Assembly (NCBI GenBank): GCA_903832085.1
Contig: CAIKZZ010000032.1
Location: forward strand, 7,275 to 71,274
Source: an uncultured Pseudomonadota bacterium
GTDB lineage: Bacteria; Pseudomonadota; Gammaproteobacteria; Steroidobacterales; Steroidobacteraceae
Reading direction: 5' to 3'
DNA length: 64,000 bases
The translations under genes and the position numbers were made by a program. The notes under the pieces are model-generated. The model made no database searches. It worked only from the letters and a program-made list of their open reading frames with translations, and was not told the origin of the DNA. Shown here one piece after another: positions 27,041 to 56,238 of this stretch. Positions within the stretch are counted from its first letter, which is position 1; each line of letters starts with the position of its first letter.

Positions 27041-28225
27041 TCAGGCAGGCTTACCTGTCATATCCAAGTGCAAGGCAGTATCCGTATACGGGAACTTGGC
27101 GATGTATTCTTCATTGAGCTCAACCCCAAGTCCTGGGTCTGTGGGCGGAATGATGTAGCCCTCCTCCCAACGAATCGGCTTTTTTAAGATCGCGGCATGA
27201 AAGCCATCCCAGCGCTCAATACTTTCTTGAATCAAGAAATTCGGACTGCAGGTGGCGAGTTGCACGTTCGCCGCCCCCACAATGGGCCCGCAGTACAAAT
27301 GCGGCGCGATCTGCACGTGATAGACCTCGGCCATGCTGGCGATTTTCTTCGCCTCCAGAATGCCACCCACCCGACCTAAATTCATTTGCAAGATAGCGGC
27401 GGAGCCTGCATTCAGCAAGCGCGCAAAATCATACTTGGTTGTCAAACGCTCACCGGTCGCAATCGGAATGCTTGTACCGCGTGCGACTTTCGCCATTTCC
27501 TCGGGCGCATCGGGCGGGACCGGCTCTTCAAACCAAAGCGGGTCGTATTTTTCCAAACGCCGCGCCAAACGAATAGCGCCAGCCGCCGTCATCTGTCCGT
27601 GCGTCCCAAACAAGAGATCCGCTTTATTGCCCACCGCCTCGCGCAATTGCTTACAAAAGCGCTCGGATAGCGCCAGTGCGTCCAATGACAACTGACGCCC
27701 ATCAAATGCCGTGTAAGGGCCTGCCGGGTCAAACTTGATGGCTGTAAAGCCTTGCTTGACGAGCTCCACGGCCCGCGTCGCTGACAAGTCCGGATCCTGA
27801 TACACATCCACTGTGTCACCGGGACGTGCGTAGATGTACGTGTAGGAGCGCAAGCGCTCGTGCACCTTGCCGCCTAACAAGTTATAGACCGGCTGATTGG
27901 CTTCCTTGCCAATGATGTCCCAGCACGCCATCTCAAGCGCACTCATGACACCCATCAACGTCAAATCCGGATGCTGGGTAAAGCCGGCCGAATACACGCG
28001 CCGCCACATGTGCTCAATACGGTGCGGATCCTCGCCCTGCATATAGCGGGCAAAGGTGTCCTCAATCATTTGCGCGACGAGGTGCGGTGCAAAGGGCACG
28101 CAGTAAGCCTCGCCCACGCCCGATACGCCACTATCTGTGGTGAGCTTCACGAACACAAAATACCGGCCGCCGTAATGCGGCGGCGGGTTGCCCACAACAA
28201 AGGTCTTAATGTCTTTGAGTTTCAT
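27041..28225 (-). CDS. Enolase-superfamily acid-sugar-type dehydratase (mandelate racemase/galactonate dehydratase-like)
   Basis: 394 aa. The N-terminus MKLKDIKTFVVGNPPPHYGGRYFVFVKLTTDSGVSGVGEAY is typical of this subgroup. Also has PLWFEEPVPPD and IATGERL. Confidence 0.7.
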   Translation of the reverse strand: MKLKDIKTFVVGNPPPHYGGRYFVFVKLTTDSGVSGVGEAYCVPFAPHLVAQMIEDTFARYMQGEDPHRIEHMWRRVYSAGFTQHPDLTLMGVMSALEMACWDIIGKEANQPVYNLLGGKVHERLRSYTYIYARPGDTVDVYQDPDLSATRAVELVKQGFTAIKFDPAGPYTAFDGRQLSLDALALSERFCKQLREAVGNKADLLFGTHGQMTAAGAIRLARRLEKYDPLWFEEPVPPDAPEEMAKVARGTSIPIATGERLTTKYDFARLLNAGSAAILQMNLGRVGGILEAKKIASMAEVYHVQIAPHLYCGPIVGAANVQLATCSPNFLIQESIERWDGFHAAILKKPIRWEEGYIIPPTDPGLGVELNEEYIAKFPYTDTALHLDMTGKPA

Positions 28226-28234
28226 GACAATCCT

Positions 28235-29668
28235 TTAGGCGGCATAGAAGCCGTTGATGGCTTTGACCTCGAGGAACTCGATCAAGCCGTGCTTGCCCCA
28301 CTCGCGACCGTTGCCCGATTGCTTAAAGCCACCAAAAGGCGTCTCATAATCTTGGGACGCGCCATTTAAGTACACGCTACCAGCACGCAAGCGCCGCGCC
28401 ACAGTGCGCGCTTTGTCCATATCCCCACTTTGCACGTAAGCTGCAAGCCCGTAGGGCGTGTCATTGGCAATAGCAATCGCCTCATCCAGCGTCTTAAACG
28501 GAATGATGACGAGCACCGGCCCGAAGATCTCTTCACGCGCGATCGTCATCTGGTTATTCACGTCAGCAAAAATGGTGGGCTTGACGTAATAGCCGGTTTC
28601 AAAGCCAGCGGGCTTACCCAGTCCGCCGATGAGCACACGCGCGCCTTCCTTGATACCGATCTCGATCAGCTTTTGGATTTTGTCGAACTGCAACTTCGAC
28701 ACCACAGGGCCTAAGTGATTACCAGGCTGCGTGGGATCGCCCACCTTCACCTTGCTGGCAACGGCAGTCGCAATCTCAAGCACGCGCTCGTACACCGACT
28801 CTTCCACCAGCATGCGCGTGGGCGCATTGCACGATTGTCCGGTGTTGTTAAAGCAATGCAGCACACTGCGCTTGACGCAGGATTCCAGATTCGCATCAGC
28901 AAACACGATATTGGCGGACTTGCCGCCTAACTCTTGCGAGACGCGCTTGACCGTGTCAGCAGCGGCTTTGGCGACACTCACGCCCGCGCGGGTTGAACCC
29001 GTGAATGACACCATATCCACCAACGGATGCGCACTTAAAGCCGCTCCCACGATGGGGCCCGTGCCGTGGACCATATTAAAGACACCCGCCGGAAACCCTG
29101 CTTCATCAATAAACTCAGCAAATAGCTGCGCCGACAGCGGACTTTGCTCGCTGGCTTTGAGGACCACAGTGCAACCGGCCACCAGGGCGGGTGCAATCTT
29201 GGCCACCAATTGATTGATGGGCCAGTTCCACGGCGTGATCAGGCCACACACACCGATCGCTTCACGCACCACGTTGGCCGCTTTACCGGTGCGCTCTTCC
29301 CACTCCATGTGCTTCGCTGCATCAATGGTGGTTTGAATATGGCCAGGACCACAGGCAGCTTGTGAGCTATTTGACAAATCATAAGGCGCGCCCATCTCAG
29401 TGCTGATGGCGCTCACCATCTCAGCGTAGCGGCGCTCAAAAATCGTCTTGACCTTCGCCACGAGCGCAATGCGCTCAGCCAACGGCAGCGCCGAATAGGC
29501 AGGAAACGCGTGACTCGCTGCCTCAACGGCCAAGTTCACATCGGCTTCCGAACCCATGCTGAGCTCAGCCACCACGCGCTCTGTTGCCGGATTAATCACG
29601 GCGAAGGGGGCAGAAGCAACCATGGAGGGGACAAAGCGGCCATTGATGTAATGATTCAGACGATTCAC
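28235..29668 (-). CDS. NAD(P)+-dependent aldehyde dehydrogenase
   Basis: 477 aa. Catalytic motifs ELGGKSANIVF and NTGQSCNAPTR. Confidence 0.85.
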   Translation of the reverse strand: MNRLNHYINGRFVPSMVASAPFAVINPATERVVAELSMGSEADVNLAVEAASHAFPAYSALPLAERIALVAKVKTIFERRYAEMVSAISTEMGAPYDLSNSSQAACGPGHIQTTIDAAKHMEWEERTGKAANVVREAIGVCGLITPWNWPINQLVAKIAPALVAGCTVVLKASEQSPLSAQLFAEFIDEAGFPAGVFNMVHGTGPIVGAALSAHPLVDMVSFTGSTRAGVSVAKAAADTVKRVSQELGGKSANIVFADANLESCVKRSVLHCFNNTGQSCNAPTRMLVEESVYERVLEIATAVASKVKVGDPTQPGNHLGPVVSKLQFDKIQKLIEIGIKEGARVLIGGLGKPAGFETGYYVKPTIFADVNNQMTIAREEIFGPVLVIIPFKTLDEAIAIANDTPYGLAAYVQSGDMDKARTVARRLRAGSVYLNGASQDYETPFGGFKQSGNGREWGKHGLIEFLEVKAINGFYAA

Positions 29669-33638: not shown

Positions 33639-34547
33639 CTAGTGGTAGCCCGCACACGCCTTCACGACGTAATCAATAAACGCGCTCACACGCCGGTTGT
33701 CACGCTTTTCCTGCCGGCAAATGAGACCCCAACCACCAGGGCATTGCACCGAATGGCTGACTGGCTGCACCAGGCGTCCAAGGCGCAGGTCCTCCTCCAC
33801 AAAAGGACCATTCACGAGCACCGCCGCACGACCCTCTAAGACAATTTCGAGCGCCACTGCCAAGGTGTCCACGACGATGCGCGGATGCGCGGTGTAATCA
33901 ACCTGAGCCGATTCAAACCAGATATCCCAATTTCGCGCCTCGGTATAAATACTGACCAAGGGCAGCGCTAGTAAGTCTTTAGGCGTTGGGTGGCTGCCGA
34001 GCGTCGCACGCAAGGCCGGCGTACAGACCGGAAACAACCGATAATCAAACAGCGGCGTCCAATGAAATCCGGGGCCTGGCGGGTTCTCGGCATACACCAA
34101 ACCCACATCGGCGAGTGACTCGTCAAAGTCCCACTCGAACGAGCAGGTACTCAGCAGCAGATTAATCTCCGGATACTGCTGCGTGAAGCTAGGAATGCGC
34201 CGCGCCAACCAGCGCACCGAGGCTGTCACATAGGTCTGCACGCGCAGCGGCTGATCGACACGCGCCCGACGCACGGTTTCAGCGCCTTCAATCAGTAATT
34301 CCAAGGCCTTGCGCACGTAAGGGTACAAGAGCTCGCCCTCGGCGCTGGGTGCAATTTTGCGGCCTTCCCTCGAAAAGAGCGCCACCCCTAAATCCGCTTC
34401 CAGCAACTGCAACTGGTGGCTGATCGCCGGATGCGTCACACACAGTTCGTCCGCTGCCTCCCGGACACTTTGACGACGGGTGGTGACTTCAAAGCCTTTG
34501 AGAGCATTGAGTGGCGGCAATTTACGCAAATCTATTTTATTTGACAC
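33639..34547 (-). CDS. LysR-family transcriptional regulator (GcvA-like)
   Basis: 302 aa. HTH LPPLNALKGFEVTTRRQSVREAADELCVTHPAISHQLQLLE. Divergent from the GMC oxidoreductase gene. Confidence 0.85.
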   Translation of the reverse strand: MSNKIDLRKLPPLNALKGFEVTTRRQSVREAADELCVTHPAISHQLQLLEADLGVALFSREGRKIAPSAEGELLYPYVRKALELLIEGAETVRRARVDQPLRVQTYVTASVRWLARRIPSFTQQYPEINLLLSTCSFEWDFDESLADVGLVYAENPPGPGFHWTPLFDYRLFPVCTPALRATLGSHPTPKDLLALPLVSIYTEARNWDIWFESAQVDYTAHPRIVVDTLAVALEIVLEGRAAVLVNGPFVEEDLRLGRLVQPVSHSVQCPGGWGLICRQEKRDNRRVSAFIDYVVKACAGYH

Positions 34548-34691: not shown

Positions 34692-36332
34692 ATGACCACA
34701 CAAACTGAATTTGACTACATCATCGTGGGTGCCGGCTCGGCAGGCTGCGTACTCGCCAATCGCTTAAGTGCATCGGGCGCGCACCGCGTGCTACTGCTAG
34801 AAGCCGGCGGCTCGGATCGCAGCCCGTGGATTCAGGTGCCCATCGGCTACGGCAAAACCTTCACCGATCCTCGTTACAACTGGATGTATAACGTCGCTCC
34901 CGACCCAGGACTCGGTGGTCGCACCGGCTATTGGCCGCGCGGCAAAGTCTTAGGTGGCTCTAGCTCCATTAATGCGATGGTCTTTATCCGCGGAGCGCAG
35001 GCTGATTTTAATGACTGGGAACGCGCCGGCAATCCAGGCTGGGGTTGGAACGATGTACTCCCGTACTTTAAAAAATCTGAAACCCACTTTTTAGGTGAAA
35101 CCGCTTACCACGGTGGCCAAGGACCCGTCTACGTCTCAGACCCAACCGCCAAAGTCCATACACTGTGTCACCGTTTCCTCGACACCTGCACGCACTTAGG
35201 GATTCCGCCAAATGCCGATTTTAATGGCGAGACGCTGTATGGCGCTGGCATCTGGCCACTGAACATCAAAAACGGACTGCGCGAGTCCACGGCCAACTGT
35301 TACCTGCGTCCAGCCATGGCACGGCGCAATTTAACGGTGCGGACCCACGCACACGCGACCCGCATTGTATTTGCAGAGCGCCGTGCCGTTGGCATCGAGT
35401 ATCTAGAAGGGACCACTCGCCACAGCGCGCGCGCAACACGCGAAGTGATTCTCTCGGCAGGGGCTGTGAATTCACCCCAGTTGCTGCAACTGTCTGGTGT
35501 CGGTGACCCCACACGACTTGCCGAATTTAATTTGCCACTCACTCACGATCTGCCTGCCGTAGGACAAGGACTCCAAGATCATGTCGCTGTGTCCTACTAC
35601 TATAAGTCCCGAATCCCGACCTTAAATAACGAGCTGTATCCCTTGTGGGGCAAAGTCTGGGCGGGTATGCGTTATGTGTTTAACCGCTCAGGACCCTTGT
35701 CACTCAGCGTCAACCAAGCGGGTGCGTTCTTAAAAAGCCGTCCAGGTCTGGATGCCCCCAACATGCAGATTTATTTTAATCCGTTAAGTTACACCAACAC
35801 CTCGCTCAAGCGGCGGCTGTTGAGTCCGGATCCGTATGCTGCGTTTTTGATGTCCTTCAACACCTGCCGACCGACCAGTCGCGGCAGTATTACCATTCAA
35901 TCGGCTGATCCACTCGCAGCTCCACTCATTCAGCCCAATGTCCTATCCACACCCGAGGACATCGCAGATGTGCAGGAAGGCGCACGCCTGTTACGCACCT
36001 TGACTGCAGCTCGGCCACTTTCGGACATCGTCGAGTCAGAATACACGCCAGGCCCCGCCTGCCAATCGGAAGCACAAATCTTGGAAGACTTTAGAGCGCG
36101 CGCGGGCACCGTGTATCACGCCTCTTGCACCTGCGCGATGGGCGCTGATCCTGCGACCTCGGTAGTCAACGCCCGCTTACAAGTGCATGGTCTTGAAGCC
36201 TTACGGGTGGTCGATGCGTCCGTGTTCCCTTACGTGACCTCCGGCAACACCAACGCGCCCACCATGATGGTGGCCGAACGGGCCGCTGATCTGATCTTGA
36301 ACAACCACGAATACAGCACAGCACACCCATGA
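34692..36332 (+). CDS. GMC-family FAD oxidoreductase (choline dehydrogenase-like)
   Basis: 546 aa. Has FDYIIVGAGSAGCVLANRLS, GGSSSINAMVF, and a C-terminal active-site region ...VYHASCTCAMG... Confidence 0.85.
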   Translation: MTTQTEFDYIIVGAGSAGCVLANRLSASGAHRVLLLEAGGSDRSPWIQVPIGYGKTFTDPRYNWMYNVAPDPGLGGRTGYWPRGKVLGGSSSINAMVFIRGAQADFNDWERAGNPGWGWNDVLPYFKKSETHFLGETAYHGGQGPVYVSDPTAKVHTLCHRFLDTCTHLGIPPNADFNGETLYGAGIWPLNIKNGLRESTANCYLRPAMARRNLTVRTHAHATRIVFAERRAVGIEYLEGTTRHSARATREVILSAGAVNSPQLLQLSGVGDPTRLAEFNLPLTHDLPAVGQGLQDHVAVSYYYKSRIPTLNNELYPLWGKVWAGMRYVFNRSGPLSLSVNQAGAFLKSRPGLDAPNMQIYFNPLSYTNTSLKRRLLSPDPYAAFLMSFNTCRPTSRGSITIQSADPLAAPLIQPNVLSTPEDIADVQEGARLLRTLTAARPLSDIVESEYTPGPACQSEAQILEDFRARAGTVYHASCTCAMGADPATSVVNARLQVHGLEALRVVDASVFPYVTSGNTNAPTMMVAERAADLILNNHEYSTAHP

Positions 36333-36949
36333 CCCAGCAAGGCACTGCAACGGTTCGGTTTCGGCAAATGAAAGACGGCACTCAAGCCGACTACCAGCTG
36401 CTCGAGCACGCGGAAACCGCCTATGTGCAGGCACTGCCTGATCGCGTGCTGGCAGCGCTCAAAAAATTAGAGTCTGAGTCGCTGCAGGGCTATCCCGTGA
36501 ATCGCTATCAGCATTCACTACAAACCGCCACGCGAGCACTGCGGGATAGCGCTGACATTGAACTACTTGTGGCAGCATTGCTGCACGATATAGGCGACGA
36601 TTTGGCACCACACAGCCATGCGGATGTGGCGGCTGCTATCTTAAAGCCTTATGTACGACCAGAAGTGACTTGGATCGTGGCACAGCACGGACTTTTCCAG
36701 AGCTACTATTTTGCACACCACTTAGGCAAAGACCGTCACGGTCGTGACCGCTACCGCGATCATCCGTGGTTTAACGCCTGTGCTGATTTTTGCGAACGCT
36801 GGGATCAGGCCTCATTTGATCCTGATTACCCCACCGAGCCGCTGGCCACTTTTGAGCCGTGGGTGCGCGAGGTGCTCACGCGCCCAGCGTTTGATCCGCG
36901 CTTTACCGGCGATCAAACAGCGTCAGTTCAGGACCCGACAAAGCCTTAA
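36329..36949 (+). CDS. HD-domain protein resembling the PhnZ/TmpB-type mixed-valent diiron oxygenases
   Basis: 206 aa. The ATGA start overlaps the GMC stop. The ligand-like series is H (YQHSLQTA), HD (ALLHDIGD), H (PHSHADV), H (VAQHG) and D (ERWDQ), in the order and spacing I recall for PhnZ. Confidence 0.55.
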   Translation: MTQQGTATVRFRQMKDGTQADYQLLEHAETAYVQALPDRVLAALKKLESESLQGYPVNRYQHSLQTATRALRDSADIELLVAALLHDIGDDLAPHSHADVAAAILKPYVRPEVTWIVAQHGLFQSYYFAHHLGKDRHGRDRYRDHPWFNACADFCERWDQASFDPDYPTEPLATFEPWVREVLTRPAFDPRFTGDQTASVQDPTKP

Positions 36950-37761
36950 GCCGCTGGCTGAGTATGCTTATCTGCGCGGCGTGCCATGACAGCGGCAATC
37001 AGCACACACGCCCCCACTGCGGCAATGATTAGTGTTGCGAGTGCATTCACATCCGGACTGACTCCCAATTTCACCTTCGCATAAATAATCATCGGCAAGG
37101 TACTTGCCCGTGGGCCCGATACAAAAGTTGAGATCACCAGATCATCCAGTGACAAGGTAAAACTCAGCAGCCAACTCGACACCAGTGCGGGGCGAATAAT
37201 CGGCAAGGTTATATCCCAGAATGCCTCCAGCGGTCTTGCCCCTAAATCCATCGCCGCATCCTCAAGCGCGACATCGGCGCTTTGCAGACGCGCCTGCACG
37301 GTAATAGCTACATACGCGGTACAAAACGCCACGTGCGATAGCACGATGGTCAACATACCGCGGTGTGGCCAACCGAATAGTTGCAGCATCGACACAAACA
37401 GCAGTAATTGCGTGATGCCGGTAATAATCTCTGGCATCACGAGCGGCGCATGCACCATGCCCGTCAACAGCAAGCGACCACGAAAGCGCGCAAAGCGCAC
37501 TAAGGCGATGGCAGCGAGCGTGCCGAGCACTAGCGCGAGAGTTGAGGCAATGACGGCGATTAGTAAGGATAAGCGGGCAGCATGCAGAATCTGCGTGTTG
37601 TGGGCTAACGCCACATACCAATTGGTGGAAAACCCACCCCACACGCTTGCTAGTGCCGAGGCGTTGAATGAATACGCAATGAGGACCAGCATTGGTATAT
37701 ACAAAAAAGCAACGCCGATACCGAATACCGTCATCAGAAAAGGTGACACGCGCCTAGTCAT
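36946..37761 (-). CDS. ABC transporter permease (PotC/PotI-like)
   Basis: 271 aa, six hydrophobic spans, EAA-like loop ALEDAAMDLGARPLEAFWDITLP. Confidence 0.85.
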   Translation of the reverse strand: MTRRVSPFLMTVFGIGVAFLYIPMLVLIAYSFNASALASVWGGFSTNWYVALAHNTQILHAARLSLLIAVIASTLALVLGTLAAIALVRFARFRGRLLLTGMVHAPLVMPEIITGITQLLLFVSMLQLFGWPHRGMLTIVLSHVAFCTAYVAITVQARLQSADVALEDAAMDLGARPLEAFWDITLPIIRPALVSSWLLSFTLSLDDLVISTFVSGPRASTLPMIIYAKVKLGVSPDVNALATLIIAAVGACVLIAAVMARRADKHTQPAA

Positions 37762-37763
37762 CT

Positions 37764-38750
37764 TCAGTGTTCCAGCTGCTTGATGCGCGCGTGCTGATAC
37801 AGCGCCAGAGGGCCGGCGAGGACCACCAAAAAGGCTACCGACACGGCAGCCGCAACCGGCCAGTCGTGGTTGCTAAAAAACTCATCCCACAACACGCGCC
37901 CAATCATCAGGTTATCCGGCCCACCGAGGAGCGCTGGAATCACGTACTCACCAATCGCGGGGATAAAAACCAACATCGAGCCTGCGATCACGCCAGGCAT
38001 CGATAGCGGCAAGGTCACATCGACAAAGGCGCGCCAGGGTCTACTGCCCAAATCCGATGCCGCCTCAAGCAGCGTCATGTCGAGCTTTTCTAAAGTGGCA
38101 TACAGCGGTAAAACCATAAAAGGCAAATACGAATACACGATTCCTAAGTACACCGCGAGCGTTGTGCGCATGATCTTCAGTGGCTGATCAATCACGTGCA
38201 GCCACAACAGTACGGTGTTAAGTAAGCCGTTGTCCCGAATCACTCCCTCAAGCGCATAGACCCGCAGCAAGAAGGACGTCCAAAACGGCAGAATGATGAT
38301 TAAGAGCAAAATGCTTTGGGTGGATTTTTTGGCACGTGCCATCGCGTACGCCATGGGATAACCCAGCGCCAAACACGCCAAGGTCGCAAAAAACGCCGTC
38401 TTCAACGAATACAAATACGAGATCGCATAGACCCCGTCGGTCAAAAGATAACGATAGTTTTTAAGGTGCAAGACCAAATGCCCGCCGCCCCCCACCACCG
38501 TCTGCCACAGCGCACTAAAAGGCGGGATGGACAGACTTGCTTCAGAGAAGCTGATCTTGAGGGCAAAGACGAACGGGATTAGAAAAAACACTGCCAGAAA
38601 CACCAGTGGCGGCGCCACAATCAGCCCGCGTCCGGCCCACATCGCGGCTTTAAGCCAAAAAGGTGCCGCCCGTACCCCATCGACGGGAATCTCACCCCGC
38701 GAGGCGGCGGGCAGGTTATTCTTCTTGTCGATCGCGGTGTGGGTGCTCAC
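37764..38750 (-). CDS. ABC transporter permease (PotB/PotH-like)
   Basis: Track ORF extends to 38834. I prefer GTG 38750 (VSTHTAIDKK...), which has AGGA about 11 nt upstream and gives ~328 aa. EAA loop LLEAASDLGSRPWRAFVDVTLP. The start is uncertain. Confidence 0.8.
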   Translation of the reverse strand: MSTHTAIDKKNNLPAASRGEIPVDGVRAAPFWLKAAMWAGRGLIVAPPLVFLAVFFLIPFVFALKISFSEASLSIPPFSALWQTVVGGGGHLVLHLKNYRYLLTDGVYAISYLYSLKTAFFATLACLALGYPMAYAMARAKKSTQSILLLIIILPFWTSFLLRVYALEGVIRDNGLLNTVLLWLHVIDQPLKIMRTTLAVYLGIVYSYLPFMVLPLYATLEKLDMTLLEAASDLGSRPWRAFVDVTLPLSMPGVIAGSMLVFIPAIGEYVIPALLGGPDNLMIGRVLWDEFFSNHDWPVAAAVSVAFLVVLAGPLALYQHARIKQLEH

Positions 38751-38847
38751 GCGCCGAAGTGTCCTTGTCAGCAGGCAAAGGGCATACAACGAGTCTGCAC
38801 CAGAGTCGTACAATCCGAAAGGCCATCCCTGCACAAAACGCTATCCC

Positions 38848-40542
38848 ATGACCGAGCCTTTAGATCTACCTGCCGATCTGCTGACAGCCGAATCCACCGG
38901 TCAGCGGCCGCGTGCGGCGCATGCTCGCCAGCGCCAGCACCTGATCGATGCTTGCATCTCGGCACTGCACGTACACGGGCCCTCAAATACCACGGTTGAA
39001 AAGGTCGTGGCCATCGCCGGCATGTCACCCGGGATTGTGCGTTTTTACTTTGCCTCCAAAGCCGCCATGCTGGTGGCATCCTTGGAGCACTTATCACGCG
39101 AGTTTGAGGAGCAACTGCTGCTGCCGGTGGCAGCACTGAAGCACACGCCAGTACTCGCTCTCACCCGTTTGGTGGAACTGTACTTAGGACCTGAGCTCGC
39201 CAGTACCCGCAAAGTGTCGGTGTGGTACTCGTTCTGGGGAGAAGCAAGCTCGCGTCAAGAGTATTACGACATCTGCGGCAAGCGCGATGCGCGCTTTGAA
39301 GCACTGGTCGGCGAACTCATTAAGGCGCTGATTGTGGATACACGTAGCGTCCATCTGGATGCCGATGGGATTGCGCTCGGATTCATTGGCGTGCTTGAGA
39401 TCCTCTGGCAAGGTTACGCATTTCAGTCAGAGCAAGCCATTGATCGCGCGGCCGCTAAGCGCCGCTGTATGGCCTATTTAAATTCGGTTTTTCCAGATCA
39501 GTTCGGGTTAAGCGCACGCAGTCAGGCGACTCACAGCGCTTTACCCGCGAGCGCCTACAGCAACGCCGCACTCTTTGCACTTGAGCGCAGCGAGTTATAT
39601 GCACATGCTAGTCACTGTGTGGGACTTAACTCTGACATTCCATCAGCAGGCGATTACTTGACGCTTGATGCGCCAATGACGCGCGCACTCGTACTACGCG
39701 ATGCCAATGGCGCGCTGCATGCCTATGCCAATCACTGCGCAGTGCGCCCCCATGCACTCGTGACAGCACGACACGGCAAGCTCACGGATCACACGTTGCT
39801 CTGCCCCAGCCACGGGCACGCCCATACTCTTGCAACCGATCCGAGGCTACCAAACGCCACCGTTTTACGACCCCTGATGCTCAACGTGGTGGGCGGTCTA
39901 CTCTTGGTGAGCAGCAGTGAGCAAGCCCCGCCACTGGCTGGAGCCGCACTCGCGGCAGCATCACGCGAGTGGACTTTGCTGCCGGCGATTCCTGATGTTG
40001 AGATTGCAGCTGACTGGAAAGTGCTGGTCGAAGGCTGGCTGGCAAACGATGAGTGGAGCGCAGACCCTAGGTCTGCAATGGCCGCGATGACAGTCAATAC
40101 TGTGCTGGATTCGACTAGCAGCCGCATGCAATTGAGATCTTTCAGTGCCAAACGGCGCGAGTCGCTCGTCAAGCACCTAGAGCCTTCCGAGACATACTGC
40201 AGTTTTATCGCACCCAATCAGCTCATTGAACTCATGCCAGCGGGCTTGAGTATCACGCAACTGCTGCCCGTGGCACCGGGTCGATGCCGCGTACGGACGT
40301 GGCTCTACCGGCCCACCACACCCACCCGCTATGATCGGGCACTCGCGTATCTCAACCGTCGCCTGCAAAGGCAGCAACTGGCCCACGATGGGGCACTTGC
40401 TGAGTCCATCCAACAAGGACTGGAGGCCGGACTCGGCGCAGCAAGTGCTTACTCACGATCAAGCGCCCCATTGATGGCATTTCACCATATGATTAGTACC
40501 CTCATCACCGGCAGCCGCCGCCCTTTTGGAGAGACCCCATGA
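38848..40542 (+). CDS. BetI-like TetR-family regulator fused to a Rieske-oxygenase-alpha-like domain with degenerate metal ligands
   Basis: Track ORF starts at 38527 but overlaps the permease gene; ATG 38848 (MTEPLDL...) gives 564 aa. The first ~215 aa are TetR/BetI-like (TTVEKVVAIAGMSPGIVRFYFASKAAML; WYSFWGEASS). The remainder is collinear with the neighbouring Rieske oxygenases (LPASAY.., LVLRDANGALHAYANHCAVRPHAL...CPSHGH, DWKVLVEGWLANDEW). Confidence 0.7.
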   Translation: MTEPLDLPADLLTAESTGQRPRAAHARQRQHLIDACISALHVHGPSNTTVEKVVAIAGMSPGIVRFYFASKAAMLVASLEHLSREFEEQLLLPVAALKHTPVLALTRLVELYLGPELASTRKVSVWYSFWGEASSRQEYYDICGKRDARFEALVGELIKALIVDTRSVHLDADGIALGFIGVLEILWQGYAFQSEQAIDRAAAKRRCMAYLNSVFPDQFGLSARSQATHSALPASAYSNAALFALERSELYAHASHCVGLNSDIPSAGDYLTLDAPMTRALVLRDANGALHAYANHCAVRPHALVTARHGKLTDHTLLCPSHGHAHTLATDPRLPNATVLRPLMLNVVGGLLLVSSSEQAPPLAGAALAAASREWTLLPAIPDVEIAADWKVLVEGWLANDEWSADPRSAMAAMTVNTVLDSTSSRMQLRSFSAKRRESLVKHLEPSETYCSFIAPNQLIELMPAGLSITQLLPVAPGRCRVRTWLYRPTTPTRYDRALAYLNRRLQRQQLAHDGALAESIQQGLEAGLGAASAYSRSSAPLMAFHHMISTLITGSRRPFGETP

Positions 40543-42029
40543 CCACCCTCAGCACCAAAGACTGGCACGGCCGCGCCGCTGCACTGACCTACCCCACCGG
40601 ACACTACATTGATGGCGCGCACGTCCCCAGCACTGGCAAGCGCTTTACGGTGACAAACCCTGCGACCAACCAACCCTTGTGCGAAGTCGCCGCGGGTGGT
40701 GCGCAGGAAATTGATCTCGCAGTGGCCTCTGGCAAGCGGGCTTTTCGTTCAGGATCTTGGCGGCGTATGGCGCCACGTGACCGCCTCGCGGTGTTGTCAC
40801 GCTTTGCGCAATTAATTGAGAAAAATGCCGAGCGCTTCGCGCTGCTTGACACGCTGTGCATGGGTAAGCCTATCAACGACATGCTCTGCATCGACATCCC
40901 ACAAGCGGTCCTGACCTTCACCTACTTTGCGGAACTGTCGGACAAGATCGACGGTTCAGTCACCGCCACCGCCTCGGATGCCTTTCATTACATCCTGCGT
41001 GAGCCACTCGGCGTCGTGGGCTGCATCGTGCCGTGGAACTATCCGCTACTGATGGCTTCCTGGAAAATCGCTCCCGCTCTTGCTGCGGGTAACTCAGTGG
41101 TGTTAAAGCCCGCCGAACAATCCCCACTATCAGCGCTCTTGATGGCGGAGCTCTTTGTAGAGGCAGGCGCGCCAGCGGGCGTCCTTAACGTCGTCAATGG
41201 CATGGGCGAGTCTGCGGGAGCGGCGCTTGCGCTGCACACTGATGTGGCCAAGATTGCGTTTACCGGATCCACCGAAATTGGCAAGCTGATGCTGACCTAT
41301 GCGGGTCAGTCCAACATGAAGCGCGTGAGTCTTGAGTGTGGCGGTAAATCGCCGCAGATTTTCTTAGGCGATGTGGGTGATTTGGATCGTGCGGTGACCT
41401 ATGCGATCAACGGCATCTTTGGCAACATGGGTGAGGTCTGCAATGCAGGCTCACGGCTACTCATCGATCAATCCATCGTGGAGGAGTTCGTGGCGCGCTT
41501 TGTCGCCAAAGGCAAAACCGCGTTTGTGGCGGGTGATCCACTGGATCCTGCCACCAACTTAGGCCCCCTCGTCACTGCCTCGCATCGTGCGCGTGTGCTC
41601 GACTACATCGGCACCGGTAAGCGGGAGGGTGCGCGCCTTGAGTTCGGCGGCGATGCGCCAGCACTGCCTGGCAGCTATGTGAATCCGACGTTGTTTTCGG
41701 GTGTCACCAACCAGATGGCCATTGCGCGCGAGGAAATCTTTGGACCCGTGGCATCGGCCATTGCAGTCAATGGCATCGACGAGGCGATCGCGATCGCAAA
41801 CGACTCGATCTATGGCCTTGCGGCATCTGTCTGGACGCAAGACTTAAGCACTGCACACAAGGCCGTTCGGGATCTAGAGGCGGGCGTGATCTGGGTCAAT
41901 TGCTTTGATCATGGCGACATGACGCAGCCCTTCGGCGGCTACAAGCAATCGGGTCATGGTCGCGACAAATGCTTAGAAAGCTTACTTGGCTACACGCAGA
42001 CAAAATCCGCTTGGATCCACTTAGGCTAG
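40539..42029 (+). CDS. NAD(P)+-dependent aldehyde dehydrogenase (betaine-/aminoaldehyde dehydrogenase-like)
   Basis: 496 aa. The ATGA start overlaps the preceding stop. Has LECGGKSPQIF and GEVCNAGSR. Confidence 0.85.
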   Translation: MTTLSTKDWHGRAAALTYPTGHYIDGAHVPSTGKRFTVTNPATNQPLCEVAAGGAQEIDLAVASGKRAFRSGSWRRMAPRDRLAVLSRFAQLIEKNAERFALLDTLCMGKPINDMLCIDIPQAVLTFTYFAELSDKIDGSVTATASDAFHYILREPLGVVGCIVPWNYPLLMASWKIAPALAAGNSVVLKPAEQSPLSALLMAELFVEAGAPAGVLNVVNGMGESAGAALALHTDVAKIAFTGSTEIGKLMLTYAGQSNMKRVSLECGGKSPQIFLGDVGDLDRAVTYAINGIFGNMGEVCNAGSRLLIDQSIVEEFVARFVAKGKTAFVAGDPLDPATNLGPLVTASHRARVLDYIGTGKREGARLEFGGDAPALPGSYVNPTLFSGVTNQMAIAREEIFGPVASAIAVNGIDEAIAIANDSIYGLAASVWTQDLSTAHKAVRDLEAGVIWVNCFDHGDMTQPFGGYKQSGHGRDKCLESLLGYTQTKSAWIHLG

Positions 42030-42064: not shown

Positions 42065-43228
42065 TTAAGGTCGCGACAGTTCCGCCTTCAACCATGCGTG
42101 TAGGCGGAACACGTCGTACTCTTCTGGCATGAGCATGCCGGCGTGATGCACGCGGGCATGCAGACCTGCTTGATTTAATTCGCACACGGCTGCGTCCTCC
42201 GTCATCACTTGCTCGGAGAACGCCCACACGTTTGCGATATCTACCGCTGGGTCTGCCAACGTGGCTCGCGGAAACAACCACTCGATCTCAAGTTCGGTGG
42301 TCTCAGGTCCTAGTGGCAGCAAACGGGTAGAGCGCACGTGATCCACATGTGCCACCAGATAATGCGACGGCAGACTCGTCATGTAGTGATAACCGATGCG
42401 CCGCTCCTCCGAAGTCAACTCCGCAAACTCGTGCCCCAAGGACTGTCCATCCACGCTCCACGTCGCGGCCCCAGCACGCAAACCCCCTTTATATAAGGGC
42501 TCCGTCGTCGCGGTATGCGTAGCCCAGTTTGGATCATCGCGTTCTTCCATGATGCCGCGCTTGTAGATCGGTACGAGCTGACTTAACGCTGGGTGTACAG
42601 ACGGGCAATGCAGGCACTCGTTGTAATTTTCCCAAAAGATTTTCCAATTACAGCGCAGGATTTTTTTCGTGCGATGTCCAACAATAAGATCCTCTAATGG
42701 CCAGTGCTGCAGGGTCTGCGCATTGCCATTAAAATGATTTGCCACCGCACCTTTCACATGGCTTAGATTTGCGTACACGAAGCCGCGCCACTCGGTTAGC
42801 GCAATGGGATACAGCGCTGTGTGCTCCATATCGATGTAATGCTCGCGTCCCGAACTCGGGATGCGCGCCAACTCACCGCTCAAGCGATAGCTCCAAGCAT
42901 GATACGGGCACGTAATCGATTTATTGGCGAACGTTCCTGAAGGCTCACTACACAAGAGTGCGCCACGGTGCCGGCAGGTGTTGTAGTAAGCACGTAGTGC
43001 GCCGTGGCTGTCGCGCACCACCAAGATGGGCTGCGTGCCAAGCGTATAGGTGCGAAAGGAGCCGTTGTCGGGCCAACTCGATGCCCGCCCCAGATACACC
43101 CAGTTGCGATACCAGATCGCGTTCAGCTCCTGCTGATACTGAGCCTCATCAAAATACCAGCTTGCCGGCAGACTCGGCTCCGGGGATTTAAGACCCGTAA
43201 ACGCGCCACTGGTTGGATCTTGCGCCAC
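42065..43228 (-). CDS. Rieske [2Fe-2S] non-haem-iron oxygenase, alpha subunit type (GbcA/CntA/Stc2-like)
   Basis: 387 aa. Rieske motif CRHRGALL...CPYHAWSY and mononuclear iron motif NWKIFWENYNECLHCPSVH. Confidence 0.85.
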   Translation of the reverse strand: MAQDPTSGAFTGLKSPEPSLPASWYFDEAQYQQELNAIWYRNWVYLGRASSWPDNGSFRTYTLGTQPILVVRDSHGALRAYYNTCRHRGALLCSEPSGTFANKSITCPYHAWSYRLSGELARIPSSGREHYIDMEHTALYPIALTEWRGFVYANLSHVKGAVANHFNGNAQTLQHWPLEDLIVGHRTKKILRCNWKIFWENYNECLHCPSVHPALSQLVPIYKRGIMEERDDPNWATHTATTEPLYKGGLRAGAATWSVDGQSLGHEFAELTSEERRIGYHYMTSLPSHYLVAHVDHVRSTRLLPLGPETTELEIEWLFPRATLADPAVDIANVWAFSEQVMTEDAAVCELNQAGLHARVHHAGMLMPEEYDVFRLHAWLKAELSRP

Positions 43229-44431: not shown

Positions 44432-44519
44432 CGCTGTCTCAATTTGTGTGTTTATACAATAAGACAATGTACTCGCGACGCTATAGAGAGGCAAGTCGTT
44501 CGTGTAATACAGAAATAAT

Positions 44520-44630
44520 TAAACTATATAAATCAACGTTTTATATAAATACATGGGCCTTTTTATCGACGAAGAGTAGCCCTTTCAAGGGGGCTTTATA
44601 AGCTATTTTTATATACCCATATAAATTTTT
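44520..44630. promoter_or_regulatory. Strikingly AT-rich divergent promoter region with three (T/C)ATATAAAT repeats
   Basis: TATATAAAT at 44525-44533 and 44542-44550, and CATATAAAT at 44618-44626. A small hairpin AGCCC-tttcaag-GGGCT lies between them. The region sits between the Rieske operon and the class-III aminotransferase. Confidence 0.4.
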
Positions 44631-44697
44631 GTGACGGGCTAAAGTGCAAGTGCTAGCCTTTTAGCTTGCCGCCATACCGGCCGGCTCGGGACCTGTC

Positions 44698-46023
44698 ATG
44701 CCACGCGACCTCACCAAAAGCCATCAACAGTGGCAAAAAGCTGTCACCAAACTCCCGCTCGGGGTGGCCTCCAATTTTCGCTACTGGGGCGAGGAGCGCA
44801 CCATCTACGTCAAGCACGGCCGTGGCGCACGATTGACGGATATCGACGACAACGTGTACGTGGACTACCGCCTCGGCTACGGGCCTGCGATCTTAGGCTA
44901 CGCCCACCCCGAGGTGGATGCCGCCGCGCATGAGGGCATGAGCGTGGGTGGCGTCTTTGCGCTATCCACCGAACGCGAGTACACGGTCGCAGCACAGATC
45001 TCCAAAATGGTGCCGGCAGCGGAGCTGGTGCGCTTTTCTAACTCGGGCACCGAAGCGGTCATGGCGGGTTTGCGCCTCGCACGCGCGTACACCCAGCGCG
45101 ATGATTACATCATTCTGGAAGGCAGCTACCACGGGCTCTTTGATGCGGCCATGTGGTACACCCCGATGGAAGAATGGAGCCAGCGAGGCGAGCCGGAAGT
45201 GCGCCCCTATAGCGAGGGAATTCCACTCGGCGTTAGGGGCTTTGCACATTTTGTGCAAGCGAATGATGCCAACCAACTCGAAGACACCTTCAAGCGCACG
45301 GCCGGTAAAATTGCCTGTTTGCTGCTCGAGCCAATTATGGGCAACTGTCTAGGCATTGCGGCGGAACCTGAGTACTTAAAGGCCGCACGCGCACTGTGCG
45401 ACAAGTACGGCACGGTGCTGCTCATTGATGAGGTAAAAACCGGCTTTCGCGTCGCCCGCGGCGGCGTGCAGGAGCTGTATGGCATCAAAGCGGATCTATG
45501 CACGTTTGCCAAGGCCGTGGCCAATGGCTATCCGATCTCCGTACTCGCCGGCCGCGAAGACATCATGCGTAAGCTCGGTCGTGGGGTGGCCCATGGCGGC
45601 ACCTACACCGCCCACTCGGTCTCGCTCGCAGCAGCCGAGGCTTGCCTGCGCATCTTAGATGAAACCGATGCCTTGAGCCGCATTGCGAGCTACGGCACAC
45701 GCCTAGCCCTGGGCATGAGCACGATTTTGGATGCGCGCGGCATCCCGCACAGCTTTGTCGGCCATCCGTCCATGATGGGCCTGTATTTTGGCGCCGAGCC
45801 GCCACGCAATTACCGCACCTGGAAAGGCAGTGACTATGCTTTTTACGATGCCATGGCTCAGGTACTGCACGATGAGGGCGTGCTGTGCGAGCCGGACTCG
45901 CGCGAACCGTGGTTTATCTCAGCGGCACATGACGAGAGCTGTCTCGGCGACACCCTGCGTGGTTTTGAGGTCGCCGTGGACATGACCCTCGCCGCCCGCG
46001 GCCAGGGCACAGGCGCGGCTTAA
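44698..46023 (+). CDS. Class-III PLP aminotransferase (glutamate-1-semialdehyde aminomutase-like / omega-aminotransferase)
   Basis: 441 aa. Has FSNSGTEAVMAGLRLAR and the PLP-lysine region LLIDEVKTGFRVARGG. Confidence 0.8.
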   Translation: MPRDLTKSHQQWQKAVTKLPLGVASNFRYWGEERTIYVKHGRGARLTDIDDNVYVDYRLGYGPAILGYAHPEVDAAAHEGMSVGGVFALSTEREYTVAAQISKMVPAAELVRFSNSGTEAVMAGLRLARAYTQRDDYIILEGSYHGLFDAAMWYTPMEEWSQRGEPEVRPYSEGIPLGVRGFAHFVQANDANQLEDTFKRTAGKIACLLLEPIMGNCLGIAAEPEYLKAARALCDKYGTVLLIDEVKTGFRVARGGVQELYGIKADLCTFAKAVANGYPISVLAGREDIMRKLGRGVAHGGTYTAHSVSLAAAEACLRILDETDALSRIASYGTRLALGMSTILDARGIPHSFVGHPSMMGLYFGAEPPRNYRTWKGSDYAFYDAMAQVLHDEGVLCEPDSREPWFISAAHDESCLGDTLRGFEVAVDMTLAARGQGTGAA

Positions 46024-46101: not shown

Positions 46102-47247
46102 GTGATCGCAACCACACCACCCTCGCTGAACCCGCAGCCTTGGACCGACCCACAGGCTGTTCCCCAAGTGGAACTGCGCAGTCTCACCAAAGACTACGAG
46201 GGCGTGGTTGCTGTGCGCGAGGTGACGCTATCCATTTACAAGGGTGAGATCTTTAGCATTGTGGGCGCTTCGGGCTGTGGCAAGACCACACTCTTACGCA
46301 TGCTGGCGGGCTTTGTGGAGCCCTCGTCGGGGCAGATTTTATTGGAAGGCGTCGATGTCAGCGCCATGCCGCCCTATGAGCGTCCCGTGAACATGATGTT
46401 CCAGTCCTATGCACTCTTTCCACACATGACGGTGGCGGAAAACGTCGGCTATGGCTTGCGGCGCTTACACCTTGATCAAGCGACACGCAGCAAGCGGATC
46501 GAGGAGGCGCTCGAGATGGTACAGCTTGGGGCTCTACAAAAGCGCAAACCACATCAGCTCTCCGGTGGTCAGCGTCAGCGCGTGGCGCTTGCCCGCGCAC
46601 TCATCCGCCGACCCACACTCTTGTTGCTGGACGAGCCCTTAAGTGCGCTCGATAAAAAGCTGCGCGAGAGCACGCAGTTTGAGCTGATGGATTTGCAGTA
46701 CCAGCTTGGCATCACCTTTGTGGTCGTGACCCACGACCAAGACGAGGCCATGACGCTCGCGAGTCGTATCGCCGTCATGGACCGTGGTGAAGTCATCCAG
46801 GTGGGCACGCCAGCGCAAGTGTATGAGTTTCCGAAAACACGCTTTGTGGCGGACTTTTTTGGCAATGCCAACTTGTTTGAGTGCACGGTGCGTCGCACTG
46901 TCGGCGGACTCGTGCAGGTCCACTCAGCCGAACTACAAGCCGATCTATGGGTCGATGATCAGCGTGCGACCTACGCGCCAGGTCAATCGGTGTGTGTGGC
47001 GGTAAGACCTGAAAAATTGCACTTAAGCAAAGAGCCGCTGACAGTGCCGCAGGGCAACCAAGTGGCGGGTACGGTTTGGGAACTCGGCTATCTGGGCAAT
47101 CGCTCCGTCTATCAGATCAAGACGCCAACGGGTAAGCTCTTAACCGCCTTTCGACAAAACGAGCGCCGCACCCTCACGTGGGCGATTGATTGGAGCGATG
47201 CGGTCTACGTGAGCTGGGCGGCTGATGCCGCAGTCATTGTGACCTAA
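46102..47247 (+). CDS. ABC transporter ATP-binding protein (PotA/PotG-like)
   Basis: 381 aa. GTG start with GAGGAG upstream. Walker A GASGCGKTT, signature LSGGQRQRVALARAL, Walker B LLLDEPLSALD, and a TOBE-like C-terminal domain. Confidence 0.9.
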   Translation: MIATTPPSLNPQPWTDPQAVPQVELRSLTKDYEGVVAVREVTLSIYKGEIFSIVGASGCGKTTLLRMLAGFVEPSSGQILLEGVDVSAMPPYERPVNMMFQSYALFPHMTVAENVGYGLRRLHLDQATRSKRIEEALEMVQLGALQKRKPHQLSGGQRQRVALARALIRRPTLLLLDEPLSALDKKLRESTQFELMDLQYQLGITFVVVTHDQDEAMTLASRIAVMDRGEVIQVGTPAQVYEFPKTRFVADFFGNANLFECTVRRTVGGLVQVHSAELQADLWVDDQRATYAPGQSVCVAVRPEKLHLSKEPLTVPQGNQVAGTVWELGYLGNRSVYQIKTPTGKLLTAFRQNERRTLTWAIDWSDAVYVSWAADAAVIVT

Positions 47248-53697: not shown

Positions 53698-53706
53698 CAC
53701 CACACC

Positions 53707-54183
53707 ATGTCTGAACTCACTGTTTATAAGACTGCTGTATTGCCCGAATGGATTGATTACAACGGGCATCTGCGCGATGCGTACTACGTCGTCATCGGGA
53801 GCCTCGCAACCGATGGGCTGATGGACCGACTCGGTCTCGATGAGGCCTATCGCAGGCACACACAGTGCACCTTGTATTCGGTGGAACTACATATGCACTG
53901 GCTACACGAAGTCAAAGCGGCGGATCACTTGGAAGTGGATGCCCATTTACTTGCCACCGACGCAAAGCGCTTGCACGTGGGGCTTGATATCCGTGTCGTG
54001 GGCCAAACCTTAGTGGCTGCAACGGCTGAGTTCATGCTGCTGCACATCCGCCAAGGCGATACCCCGGGTACTGCACCCTTCCCCGCCGACGTTTTACAGC
54101 GCGTTGAGGCGTACAAAGCCCTTGCAGGCAATACCCCTTGGGCGGGACCTGCATCGCGCGCACTGATGCTCAAACGCGGATGA
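53707..54183 (+). CDS. Hotdog-fold acyl-CoA thioesterase (4HBT/YbgC-like)
   Basis: 158 aa with a ..WIDYNGHLRDAYY.. motif. It sits after a BKACE gene, like the betainyl-CoA thioesterase of carnitine loci. Confidence 0.65.
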   Translation: MSELTVYKTAVLPEWIDYNGHLRDAYYVVIGSLATDGLMDRLGLDEAYRRHTQCTLYSVELHMHWLHEVKAADHLEVDAHLLATDAKRLHVGLDIRVVGQTLVAATAEFMLLHIRQGDTPGTAPFPADVLQRVEAYKALAGNTPWAGPASRALMLKRG

Positions 54184-56237: not shown

Positions 56238-56238
56238 C

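Follow-up and report, generated by a model that had tools for sequence, protein, structure and literature searches.

Regulators in which a whole enzyme fold serves as the sensor domain are already known in principle from the MocR/GabR proteins, which consist of a GntR DNA-binding domain and an aminotransferase-like domain that acts as the effector sensor and keeps its pyridoxal phosphate, but no description of a Rieske-oxygenase alpha-subunit in such a role was found in the literature searched. In the tetralin pathway, a reductase-like Fe-S flavoprotein and a Rieske ferredoxin (ThnY/ThnA3) are reported to be reused in transcriptional control (PMC3771892). The residues of carnitine monooxygenase CntA to which reference is made below are its iron ligands (His208, His213 and Asp323), Tyr203, which binds the quaternary ammonium through a pi-cation contact and is the hallmark of group Va, and Glu205, an inter-subunit bridging residue that contacts the Rieske centre of the neighbouring subunit (PMC7948474). 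The gene considered here is found in a stretch of 64,000 nucleotides from an uncultured member of the Steroidobacteraceae (assembly GCA_903832085.1, contig CAIKZZ010000032.1, positions 7,275 to 71,274 of the forward strand), and this whole stretch is referred to as the window. The product of this gene is a genuine TetR protein joined to a complete Rieske-oxygenase alpha-subunit fold, and the interpretation that we favour, with moderate confidence, is that it is a repressor of the surrounding amine cluster in which a non-catalytic group-V Rieske-oxygenase domain serves as the sensor.

The gene occupies an open frame on the + strand extending from 38527 to 40542, and translation from the ATG at 38848 gives a protein of 564 aa (MTEPLDL...), whose domains are listed in Table 1. 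All four Pfam domains exceed the gathering score of their family, which was used as the threshold, on this one open reading frame (ORF), in agreement with a preliminary description of this DNA that had proposed a TetR regulator fused to a Rieske-oxygenase-like domain. That description had also considered that the C-terminal part might lack a significant Rieske-family match, whereas both Rieske and Ring_hydroxyl_A are matched there above their cut-offs, the latter at residues 428-553 (42.9 bits, cut-off 24.9) and only over profile positions 78-206. The N-terminal part has the helix-turn-helix and the all-helical C-terminal core of the TetR family. The TetR_N residues are nearly all invariant across the 120 closest full-length relatives, to which all family counts given below (n=120) refer, and the core ends in a conserved YLxSVFPxxF junction motif, which is followed by a linker whose length varies among the fusions. 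The AlphaFold2 (AF2) model of the protein has a mean predicted local distance difference test (pLDDT) score of 84.3, with low confidence only in the N-terminal tail, the linker at 222-228, residues 408-412 and the C-terminal end; in its TetR part helices are formed by residues 23-43, 50-57 and 61-67, and the TetR matches of the protein in the PDB are 3e7q and 2w53. For the C-terminal half, Pfam, Foldseek and profile comparison all recover the Rieske and catalytic domains of an alpha-subunit. The top Foldseek matches in the PDB are the stachydrine demethylase Stc2, CntA and terephthalate dioxygenase (TPADO), with E~1e-14 and target template-modelling (TM) scores of 0.55-0.66, and when a profile was built from 39 C-terminal domains, its best match was CntA (E=7e-38, positions 6-306, nearly full length), followed by Stc2.

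The affiliation of the two halves with named families is a different matter. Against the NCBIfam BetI equivalog models (TIGR03384 / NF001978) the protein scores 73.1 bits where the cut-off is 201.3 and, for the second model, 65.2 bits where it is 118, and against the GbcA model NF058607 it scores 54.5 bits, over residues 226-329 only, where the cut-off is 670; as these scores are below the equivalog cut-offs, the fusion protein falls outside both curated families. The label BetI-like that was initially given to it is appropriate for its BetI-type TetR_C_6 domain, but the protein is not BetI. Similarly, the collinearity that had been noted with two Rieske oxygenases encoded nearby (OX420 and OX387) extends over the full length for OX420 (residues 12-340 of the C-terminal half against 45-408, 25% identity, E=2e-22) but is limited to the Rieske part for OX387 (E=1e-11). 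The sequence strings on which this comparison was based, viz. LPASAY, LVLRDANGALHAYANHC, CAVRPH, CPSHGH and DWKVLVEGWLANDEWSADPRS, are all present in the protein.

The fusion is real, ancient and conserved. A protein 100% identical to the window product (P0001) is called on six other metagenome contigs, and a protein search identified full-length relatives, at least 120 in number, which carry these domains, are 516-605 aa long and show 46-55% identity, as well as one relative with 86% identity. A scan of species-representative genomes revealed 342 genomes with a relative, mostly from Steroidobacterales, of which the best 80 are all metagenome-assembled genomes (MAGs) labelled Steroidobacteraceae, Steroidobacterales, Gammaproteobacteria or Proteobacteria/Pseudomonadota, none of them showing more than 52% identity, so that the source of the window is not represented in this set. 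Of the 85 loci checked, which comprise 83 fetched ones and the window, 84 have an uninterrupted fused ORF, with a median length of 558 aa. The possibility raised at the outset, that adjacent TetR and oxygenase genes were joined by a sequencing or assembly frameshift, is therefore ruled out, since continuous ORFs of ~520-600 aa are present in over 80 assemblies that are independent of each other and come from many studies; it is also countered by the identical protein on six contigs and by the junction motif, which is common to the fusions with intact ligands described below. No support was found for this possibility, whose probability is negligible, and it is regarded as refuted. In one MAG (L010:9914-11560) a single in-frame stop is seen in the oxygenase-like part (…APL*LAV…), the remaining frame being intact, and this stop represents either a sequencing error or a lineage with a truncated sensor domain.

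The synteny around the fusion gene is nearly fixed. In the loci that have enough flanking sequence, a PotB-like permease gene is divergent upstream of it in all 76 cases, a class-III aminotransferase (AT3) gene is found downstream in 65 of 69, an OX420 orthologue is present on the opposite strand within 3.5 kb in 70 of 73, and an aldehyde dehydrogenase gene follows directly in 50 of 78, while an OX387 orthologue is present in 12 of 73. Annotation pipelines recognise the domains but name many members of the family only as 'TetR/AcrR repressor of bet genes', there is no curated family for the fusion, and no description of a TetR-Rieske-oxygenase fusion or regulator was found in the literature searched, including a 2025 Rieske-oxygenase review. 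The earlier supposition that such a fusion is uncharacterised agrees with this, but the fusion is not unique, as a large sister family with intact ligands exists.

The state of the cofactor sites was determined from an alignment of the 120 relatives with both OX420 and OX387. The Rieske ligand motif C-x-H...C-x2-H is altered in the window protein, which reads C297-A-V299...C319-P-S-H322. The first Cys (C297, codon 39736-39738), the second Cys (C319, 39802-39804) and the second His (H322, 39811-39813) are each present in 120/120 relatives. The position of the canonical first His is occupied by V299 (39742-39744) and in the family by Q (44), E (37), H (15), A (9), V (6) or R (5), so that the first His is kept in 15 of the 120 proteins only. 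At +4 and +5 after the first Cys, however, stand P301 and H302 (H302 codon 39751-39753), of which the Pro is shared by 118 and the His by all 120 relatives. The His at +5 is ancestral, as it is present within CRHRAH in 18 of 22 intact fusions and within CPHRGH in CntA. In a more distant subclade the pattern becomes C...RPH...C-x-x-D-G, with Asp replacing H322, and in one representative (P0204) all four Cys/His residues are lost. At the mononuclear-iron site, both His residues are absent from the window protein and are replaced by A, G or P, or deleted, in 120/120 relatives; the column of the Asp ligand is unconserved (A 32, E 31, D 20), the window protein having D514 there, and a 2-His-1-carboxylate site is thus lacking. 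As the 2-His iron site is missing, the protein is unable to hydroxylate or demethylate, i.e. it is no oxygenase.

These results show that the catalytic iron site is gone throughout the family and that a Cys/His/Cys/His(Asp) tetrad persists, in which the first His is shifted. The term pseudo-enzyme and the reported absence of the mononuclear-iron His residues are both borne out, and the possibility also entertained at that time, that all Rieske and Fe(II) ligands are conserved, is not the case. The statement that the Rieske ligands are partly lost is correct for the first His, but the reading 'C-A-V' understates what remains, as it overlooked the invariant H302. Rather than being simply degenerate, as had been suggested, the Rieske site is probably rearranged, and the four invariant residues C297, H302, C319 and H322 are candidate ligands of a metal or a [2Fe-2S] cluster. 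In the Rieske proteins of bc1/b6f complexes the +5 position is occupied by the disulfide Cys (CTHLGC...CPCHGS), which packs against the second cluster loop. By comparison with this Cys, a His at +5 could plausibly reach the cluster iron.

Although catalysis is lost, the oxygenase-like half continues to be under purifying selection. The ratios of nonsynonymous to synonymous changes (dN/dS) were calculated by the Nei-Gojobori method for 25 independent pairs and for the window against its closest relative L168, and in what follows the two values are given in this order. They are 0.063 and 0.067 for the TetR part, 0.222 and 0.238 for the Rieske-like part, and 0.255 and 0.271 for the catalytic-like part, with control values of 0.085 and 0.048 for OX420, 0.054 and 0.022 for the aldehyde dehydrogenase and 0.048 and 0.024 for the aminotransferase. 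Identity to the family averages 74% in the TetR part (residues 22-219), 38% in the Rieske-like and 32% in the catalytic-like part, and the neighbouring genes of the same loci are 60-87% identical. About 30 positions in the oxygenase-like half are invariant or nearly so. With dN/dS values of 0.22-0.27, this half is relaxed, by ~three- to four-fold, yet it is clearly not evolving neutrally.

Further, several of the residues that are kept correspond to functional positions of the group-V enzymes. At the position of CntA Tyr203 the window protein has W397 (40036-40038), i.e. an aromatic residue, as in group Va, and Trp is present there in 114 of 120 relatives; OX420, OX387 and nearly all intact fusions have Tyr. 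The position of CntA Glu205 is Glu in 104 of 120 relatives and in both OX420 and OX387, but in the window protein it is A399 (40042-40044), so that the bridging Glu is absent from this particular member. The ESVQRGL motif (ESxQxG, residues 519-524, in the window protein), which is common to the neighbours and the intact fusions, is represented by S520 and Q522 (S in 115 and Q in 119 relatives), and the catalytic-like part also retains the A-D-W-K helix (388-391), E395, L398 and P456-N457. These similarities show that the domain descends from quaternary-ammonium oxygenases. It has kept an aromatic residue at the position that grips the ammonium, and most members also have the Glu that in CntA touches the Rieske centre of the adjacent subunit. 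The purifying selection and the retained aromatic residue fit the sensor role that was proposed earlier for this domain.

The origin of this family is clarified by an exhaustive search with the C-terminal domain alone, in which 1336 representatives reach E<=1e-3 and 128 reach E<=1e-10. Among the best 150 of the 1336 representatives, counting only those proteins with a full TetR N-terminus, the iron His pair is absent in 19 that have C-x4-H only, in nine that have its Asp variant (8) or have lost the set fully (1), and in six that have a canonical C-x-H, while 11 proteins have both the canonical C-x-H and an intact iron His pair (E-x-Y-H-x4-H). A search with one of these intact fusions (P0165) identified at least 120 proteins of 590-656 aa that have the four Pfam domains. 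They come from Alpha- and Gammaproteobacteria, among them Steroidobacteraceae, and where they have a name at all in NCBI it is just 'SRPBCC family protein' or 'Rieske 2Fe-2S domain-containing protein'. All seven cofactor ligands (C-x-H...C-x2-H, E-x-Y-H-x4-H, Asp) are invariant in the 22 intact fusions examined; examples are P0162, P0163, P0165, P0184, P0205, P0207, P0234, P0236 and P0361, and the loci L085-L097. In the intermediates P0156, P0220 and P0225 only the catalytic iron site is lost. The intact fusions and the window family have the same TetR subtype and the same YLxSVFPxxF junction and belong to one oxygenase superclade; they are clearly homologous, and the comparison points to a single ancestral fusion behind the intact and the degenerate families.

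When the oxygenase domains are placed in a neighbour-joining tree, the degenerate family forms a monophyletic clade (bootstrap 98) on a long branch, with an intermediate form as its sister (78), and both the family and the intact fusions are part of a weakly supported superclade (59) that also includes the OX420 orthologues and some free oxygenases, OX387 being distant. The oxygenase domains of intact fusions show 37-46% identity to OX420 and the degenerate domain 24-25%. An origin by recent duplication of the neighbouring oxygenases was considered and is ruled out by the identity of 24% to OX420 and 19% to OX387 and by the long branch. No free pseudo-oxygenase was found; among the short C-x4-H matches, only P0124 and P0136 were checked individually, and these apparently stand-alone degenerate domains start with the end of a TetR domain and are hence fragments. 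Of the intact-fusion loci with long flanks, seven have no separate oxygenase nearby, one has an oxygenase directly downstream and one has two distant ones. Although the sample is small, this pattern fits a division of labour in which the fused copy lost catalysis where a free OX420-type enzyme is present, and the intact fusions may be true enzyme-repressors.

Based on these results, the favoured interpretation can be stated as follows. The protein would be a one-component repressor of the TetR family, in which a DNA-binding and regulatory core of ~200 aa is extended by a non-catalytic group-V alpha-subunit that serves as the effector-sensing module and would bind the quaternary or methylated amine attacked by the neighbouring oxygenases. 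A metal centre is probably retained in this domain, a rearranged [2Fe-2S] cluster being the likeliest form. The signal would be passed to the TetR core and lead to its release from an operator in the intergenic region between potB and the fusion gene, and this would derepress potBC uptake, the operon that the repressor gene forms with that of the aldehyde dehydrogenase, and perhaps also the genes for the oxygenases and the aminotransferase. In evolutionary terms, such a sensor would have arisen from TetR-oxygenase fusions with the full cofactor set, catalysis being left to the separate paralogue OX420. Several observations weigh against this interpretation. Conservation is much stronger in the TetR core (74%) than in the oxygenase-like half (32-38%), and the core has its own BetI-type ligand domain, in which the effector might bind while the extra domain does something else. 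The reach of H302 to the cluster and the pocket around W397 are both read from sequence, and the His at +5 is inherited from the ancestral enzyme, so that its invariance need not indicate a new role as ligand. The CntA pocket residues Y225, Y295, Y315 and F319 are unconserved in the family, and the window protein itself has A399 at the bridging position as well as T449 and F432 where Trp is present in 81 and 108 of the 120 relatives, respectively. The evidence for an operator is also weak, as it consists of a single site in a spacer that is generally similar in L168, and a common motif is lacking in the larger clade.

The same observations can be read in other ways, one of which is that the domain senses redox state, iron or oxygen. 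In this case the state or the occupancy of a [2Fe-2S] cluster held by Cys297, His302, Cys319 and His322 would control DNA binding and tie the expression of the oxygenase to the supply of electrons, iron or oxygen. The invariance of the four potential ligands in 120/120 relatives despite loss of the catalytic site speaks for this, the His-to-Asp swap in the subclade preserves ligating chemistry, and the Glu at the CntA Glu205 position is kept in 104/120 relatives although there is no iron to receive electrons; ThnY/ThnA3 provide a loose precedent for an oxygenase electron-transfer component in regulation (PMC3771892). However, the first His has changed to the non-ligating Ala or Val in 15/120 sequences, including the window protein, so that a C-x4-H geometry would be needed, and P0204 lacks all four residues. 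The conserved aromatic residue at the pi-cation position is left unexplained, and a structural Zn site would equally explain the conservation of the tetrad. We consider this interpretation to be rather unlikely. An unlikely explanation, in our estimation, is also that the domain serves for oligomerisation or for binding a partner, by forming trimers of the alpha3 type, either by itself or mixed with OX420 or OX387, and thereby assembling TetR dimers for cooperative binding or looping, or allowing the enzyme to sequester the repressor in the presence of substrate. Both CntA and Stc2, which are its closest solved relatives, are head-to-tail alpha3 trimers, no part of the catalytic-like domain is better conserved than the helix at the interface (ADWK...E.WLE), and 70/73 loci have, not more than 3.5 kb away, a gene for a genuine oxygenase that belongs to the same superclade. 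Mixed trimers, however, are made less likely by the identity of only ~24% to OX420, the window protein is without the Glu at the bridging position (A399), and a pure scaffold would not need an invariant set of Cys and His residues. The sensor, redox and oligomerisation interpretations are not mutually exclusive.

An interpretation that differs from all of these is that the oxygenase-like half is a functionless but tolerated remnant of a bifunctional enzyme-repressor, with all regulation being carried out by the TetR core. The dN/dS of the C-terminal half is three to four times that of the TetR half and of a genuine oxygenase, its identity across the family is only 32-38%, and the MAG L010 has an in-frame stop in it. 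However, the values of 0.22-0.27, which are seen both in the 25 pairs and in the lineage of the window, are far below 1, the length and the frame are kept in 84/85 loci, and ~30 invariant or nearly invariant positions and a confident AF2 model are not what a decaying domain would show. It is thus very improbable that this half is without function.

Table 1. Positions of the fusion gene, its domains, the neighbouring genes and the candidate operator in the window
Feature	Position	Strand	Evidence
Fusion gene, TetR + non-catalytic Rieske-oxygenase alpha-subunit-like domain	38848-40542	+	ORF, 4 Pfam domains, 564 aa + stop
TetR_N helix-turn-helix, residues 32-77	38941-39078	+	PF00440, 27.6 bits (cut-off 24)
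TetR_C_6 (BetI-type) regulatory core, residues 104-215	39157-39492	+	PF13977, 40.9 bits (cut-off 27)
Inter-domain linker, residues 216-232	39493-39543	+	pLDDT <50 at 222-228
Rieske-like domain, residues ~233-345	39544-39882	+	Pfam Rieske at 256-326, 26.6 bits (cut-off 20.3)
Catalytic-domain-like part without 2-His iron site, residues 346-564	39883-40539	+	Pfam Ring_hydroxyl_A
PotC-like ATP-binding cassette (ABC) permease gene	36946-37761	-	Pfam BPD_transp_1
PotB-like ABC permease gene	37764-~38750	-	Pfam BPD_transp_1, divergent from fusion gene
Aldehyde dehydrogenase gene, ATGA translationally coupled to fusion gene	40539-42029	+	Pfam Aldedh E=1.6e-162
OX387, Rieske oxygenase alpha-subunit, all ligands	42065-43228	-	Pfam Rieske + Ring_hydroxyl_A
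OX420, Rieske oxygenase alpha-subunit, all ligands	43232-44431/44494	-	Pfam Rieske + Ring_hydroxyl_A
Class-III aminotransferase (AT3)	44698-46023	+	Pfam
PotA-like ABC ATPase	46102-47247	+	Pfam
Candidate operator/promoter block, low confidence	38789-38823	.	Imperfect palindrome ACGAGTCTG-cac-CAGAGTCGT (38789-38809) abutting -10-like TACAAT (38809-38814)

The genes surrounding the fusion gene are listed in Table 1. Its placement between Pot-type permease genes and a coupled aldehyde dehydrogenase gene is as initially described, and the TGA of the fusion gene and the start codon of the dehydrogenase gene share the sequence ATGA at 40539-40542. The genes for the class-III aminotransferase and the PotA-like ATPase are conserved in the cluster. 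The best PDB matches of both OX387 and OX420 are Stc2 and CntA. In the comparison of the window with L168, OX387 evolves faster than OX420 (dN/dS 0.15 vs 0.05), and it looks like an accessory paralogue that is restricted to the closest clade of the window. Other genes around the fusion encode a GMC oxidoreductase, an HD-domain protein, a LysR regulator (33639-34547), two aldehyde dehydrogenases and a TonB receptor, while two amine oxidases and a GCV_T protein are encoded in addition in the loci of relatives. No FNR-type reductase partner is encoded within the 64-kb window. Together, these genes point to a cluster by which a methylated or quaternary amine, or possibly an aminophosphonate, is taken up and degraded. 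In regard to the latter, the HD-domain gene (36329-36949, +) overlaps the GMC oxidoreductase gene (ATGA) and is conserved beside potC in most related loci, and in the PDB its product has only two sequence relatives, PhnZ (E=4e-5) and TmpB (E=4e-3), which are diiron oxygenases that cleave C-P bonds. These weak matches hint that the cluster may handle (trimethyl)aminoalkylphosphonates, with the Rieske oxygenases replacing the usual 2-oxoglutarate hydroxylase.

Farther from the fusion gene, an ORF of the MttB methyltransferase family is present at 15076-16677 (Pfam MTTB E=2e-110), and the sole Rfam match in the window, PYLIS_3, the pyrrolysine insertion element of mttB (45 bits, 15525-15624, -), is found inside it; this match is probably due to conserved coding sequence and not to a functional element, and it is in keeping with a quaternary-amine island. 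Genes of the type involved in the breakdown of carnitine and quaternary amines are also present, viz. for a BKACE protein (52798-53697), an ADP-forming CoA ligase (54138-56237) and an enoyl-CoA hydratase (56239-57015), and there is a second aldehyde dehydrogenase (28235-29668) and two enolase-superfamily proteins (within the 52798-57015 and 27041-29668 regions). The window as a whole looks like one large amine-catabolic island.

The divergently transcribed potBC genes are most likely the regulatory target of the fusion protein. The spacer between potB and the fusion gene is 97 nt long, and the palindrome in it (Table 1) is unique in the window, at least 2 matches being obtained in 0 of 100 shuffles. 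A run of 34 nt covering the palindrome and TACAAT is identical in L168, but this is a weak footprint of an operator because the whole spacer is 85% identical. No second copy of the palindrome or of its core was found in the window, and a sigma-70 consensus scan of 38600-38950 found nothing. Loci of the closest clade share AGTCTGC...GAAGGG blocks at a fixed spacing. In the larger clade the start codons are ~25-30 nt apart, which leaves almost no spacer, and no common operator motif was found there by k-mer counts or by an expectation-maximisation (EM) motif finder applied to the upstream regions; these searches mostly recovered the coding sequences of potB and the fusion gene. Another 'palindrome', TTCTTGCGCGCAAGAA, was rejected as a product of the symmetry forced in the search. 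The AT-rich spacer between OX420 and AT3 (44495-44697, 49% GC) contains a perfect inverted repeat, TATATAAA-N7-TTTATATA (44525-44547), and the pair GCTAAAGTGCAAG/CTAGCCTTTTAGC (44638-44665). These repeats are unlike the candidate TetR palindrome, and the LysR regulator or another factor may bind there.

Regulators that use a whole enzyme as the sensor show how the chemistry of a pathway can be wired directly to its transcription, and few examples of them are known. The natural series of intact, iron-less and Rieske-rearranged fusions makes the route from an enzyme to a pseudo-enzyme sensor directly testable, and the set of Cys, His at +5, Cys and His would, if it binds a cluster, constitute a new Rieske-type ligand spacing. 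The family also marks a conserved and uncharacterised cluster for amines or quaternary amines in the abundant Steroidobacterales of soil and peat, and it could yield biosensor parts for quaternary amines. A much broader proposal, to which we give only a low probability, is that the TetR-Rieske fusions form an unrecognised class of regulators that use the oxygenase of the pathway itself as their sensor. The intact members would be self-regulating enzyme-repressors that report turnover or electron supply to the DNA in a PutA-like manner, and the window family would be their non-catalytic descendant, with a redox-active [2Fe-2S] cluster of unprecedented C-x4-H...C-x2-H(D) spacing, integrating amine binding with redox state, possibly as a trimer of dimers.

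In comparison to the known systems, the fusion protein resembles BetI, the choline-responsive bet repressor of the TetR family, in having TetR_N and TetR_C_6 domains and in having BetI as its best NCBIfam match, and BetI likewise regulates quaternary-amine metabolism; however, BetI is a protein of ~195 aa without an extra domain, and the context of the fusion gene is not betIBA. With the group V oxygenases CntA (6Y8J), Stc2 (3VCA) and GbcA it shares the whole alpha-subunit fold, the NWK/DWK helix and the ESVQRGL motif, and with CntA in particular the aromatic residue at the Tyr203 position, the His at +5 and, in most family members, the Glu at the Glu205 position. In contrast to CntA, the fusion family has no equivalents of His208 and His213, and the Asp323 position is unconserved, so that no mononuclear iron is held; unlike the group V enzymes in general, it mostly lacks the first Rieske His, has a DNA-binding domain and evolves ~three times faster than the genuine enzyme. 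The similarity to ThnY/ThnA3 lies in the reuse of components of a Rieske-oxygenase system for regulation of the pathway, whereas these are reported to be separate proteins acting through a LysR activator, with no involvement of the alpha-subunit and no fusion to a DNA-binding domain (PMC3771892). The likeness to MocR/GabR is one of analogy only: in both cases a DNA-binding domain is combined with a whole enzyme fold that was recruited, or in the present case would have been recruited, as a sensor, but the DNA-binding family and the enzyme fold are different ones, and in the fusion protein the catalytic metal site has been lost.

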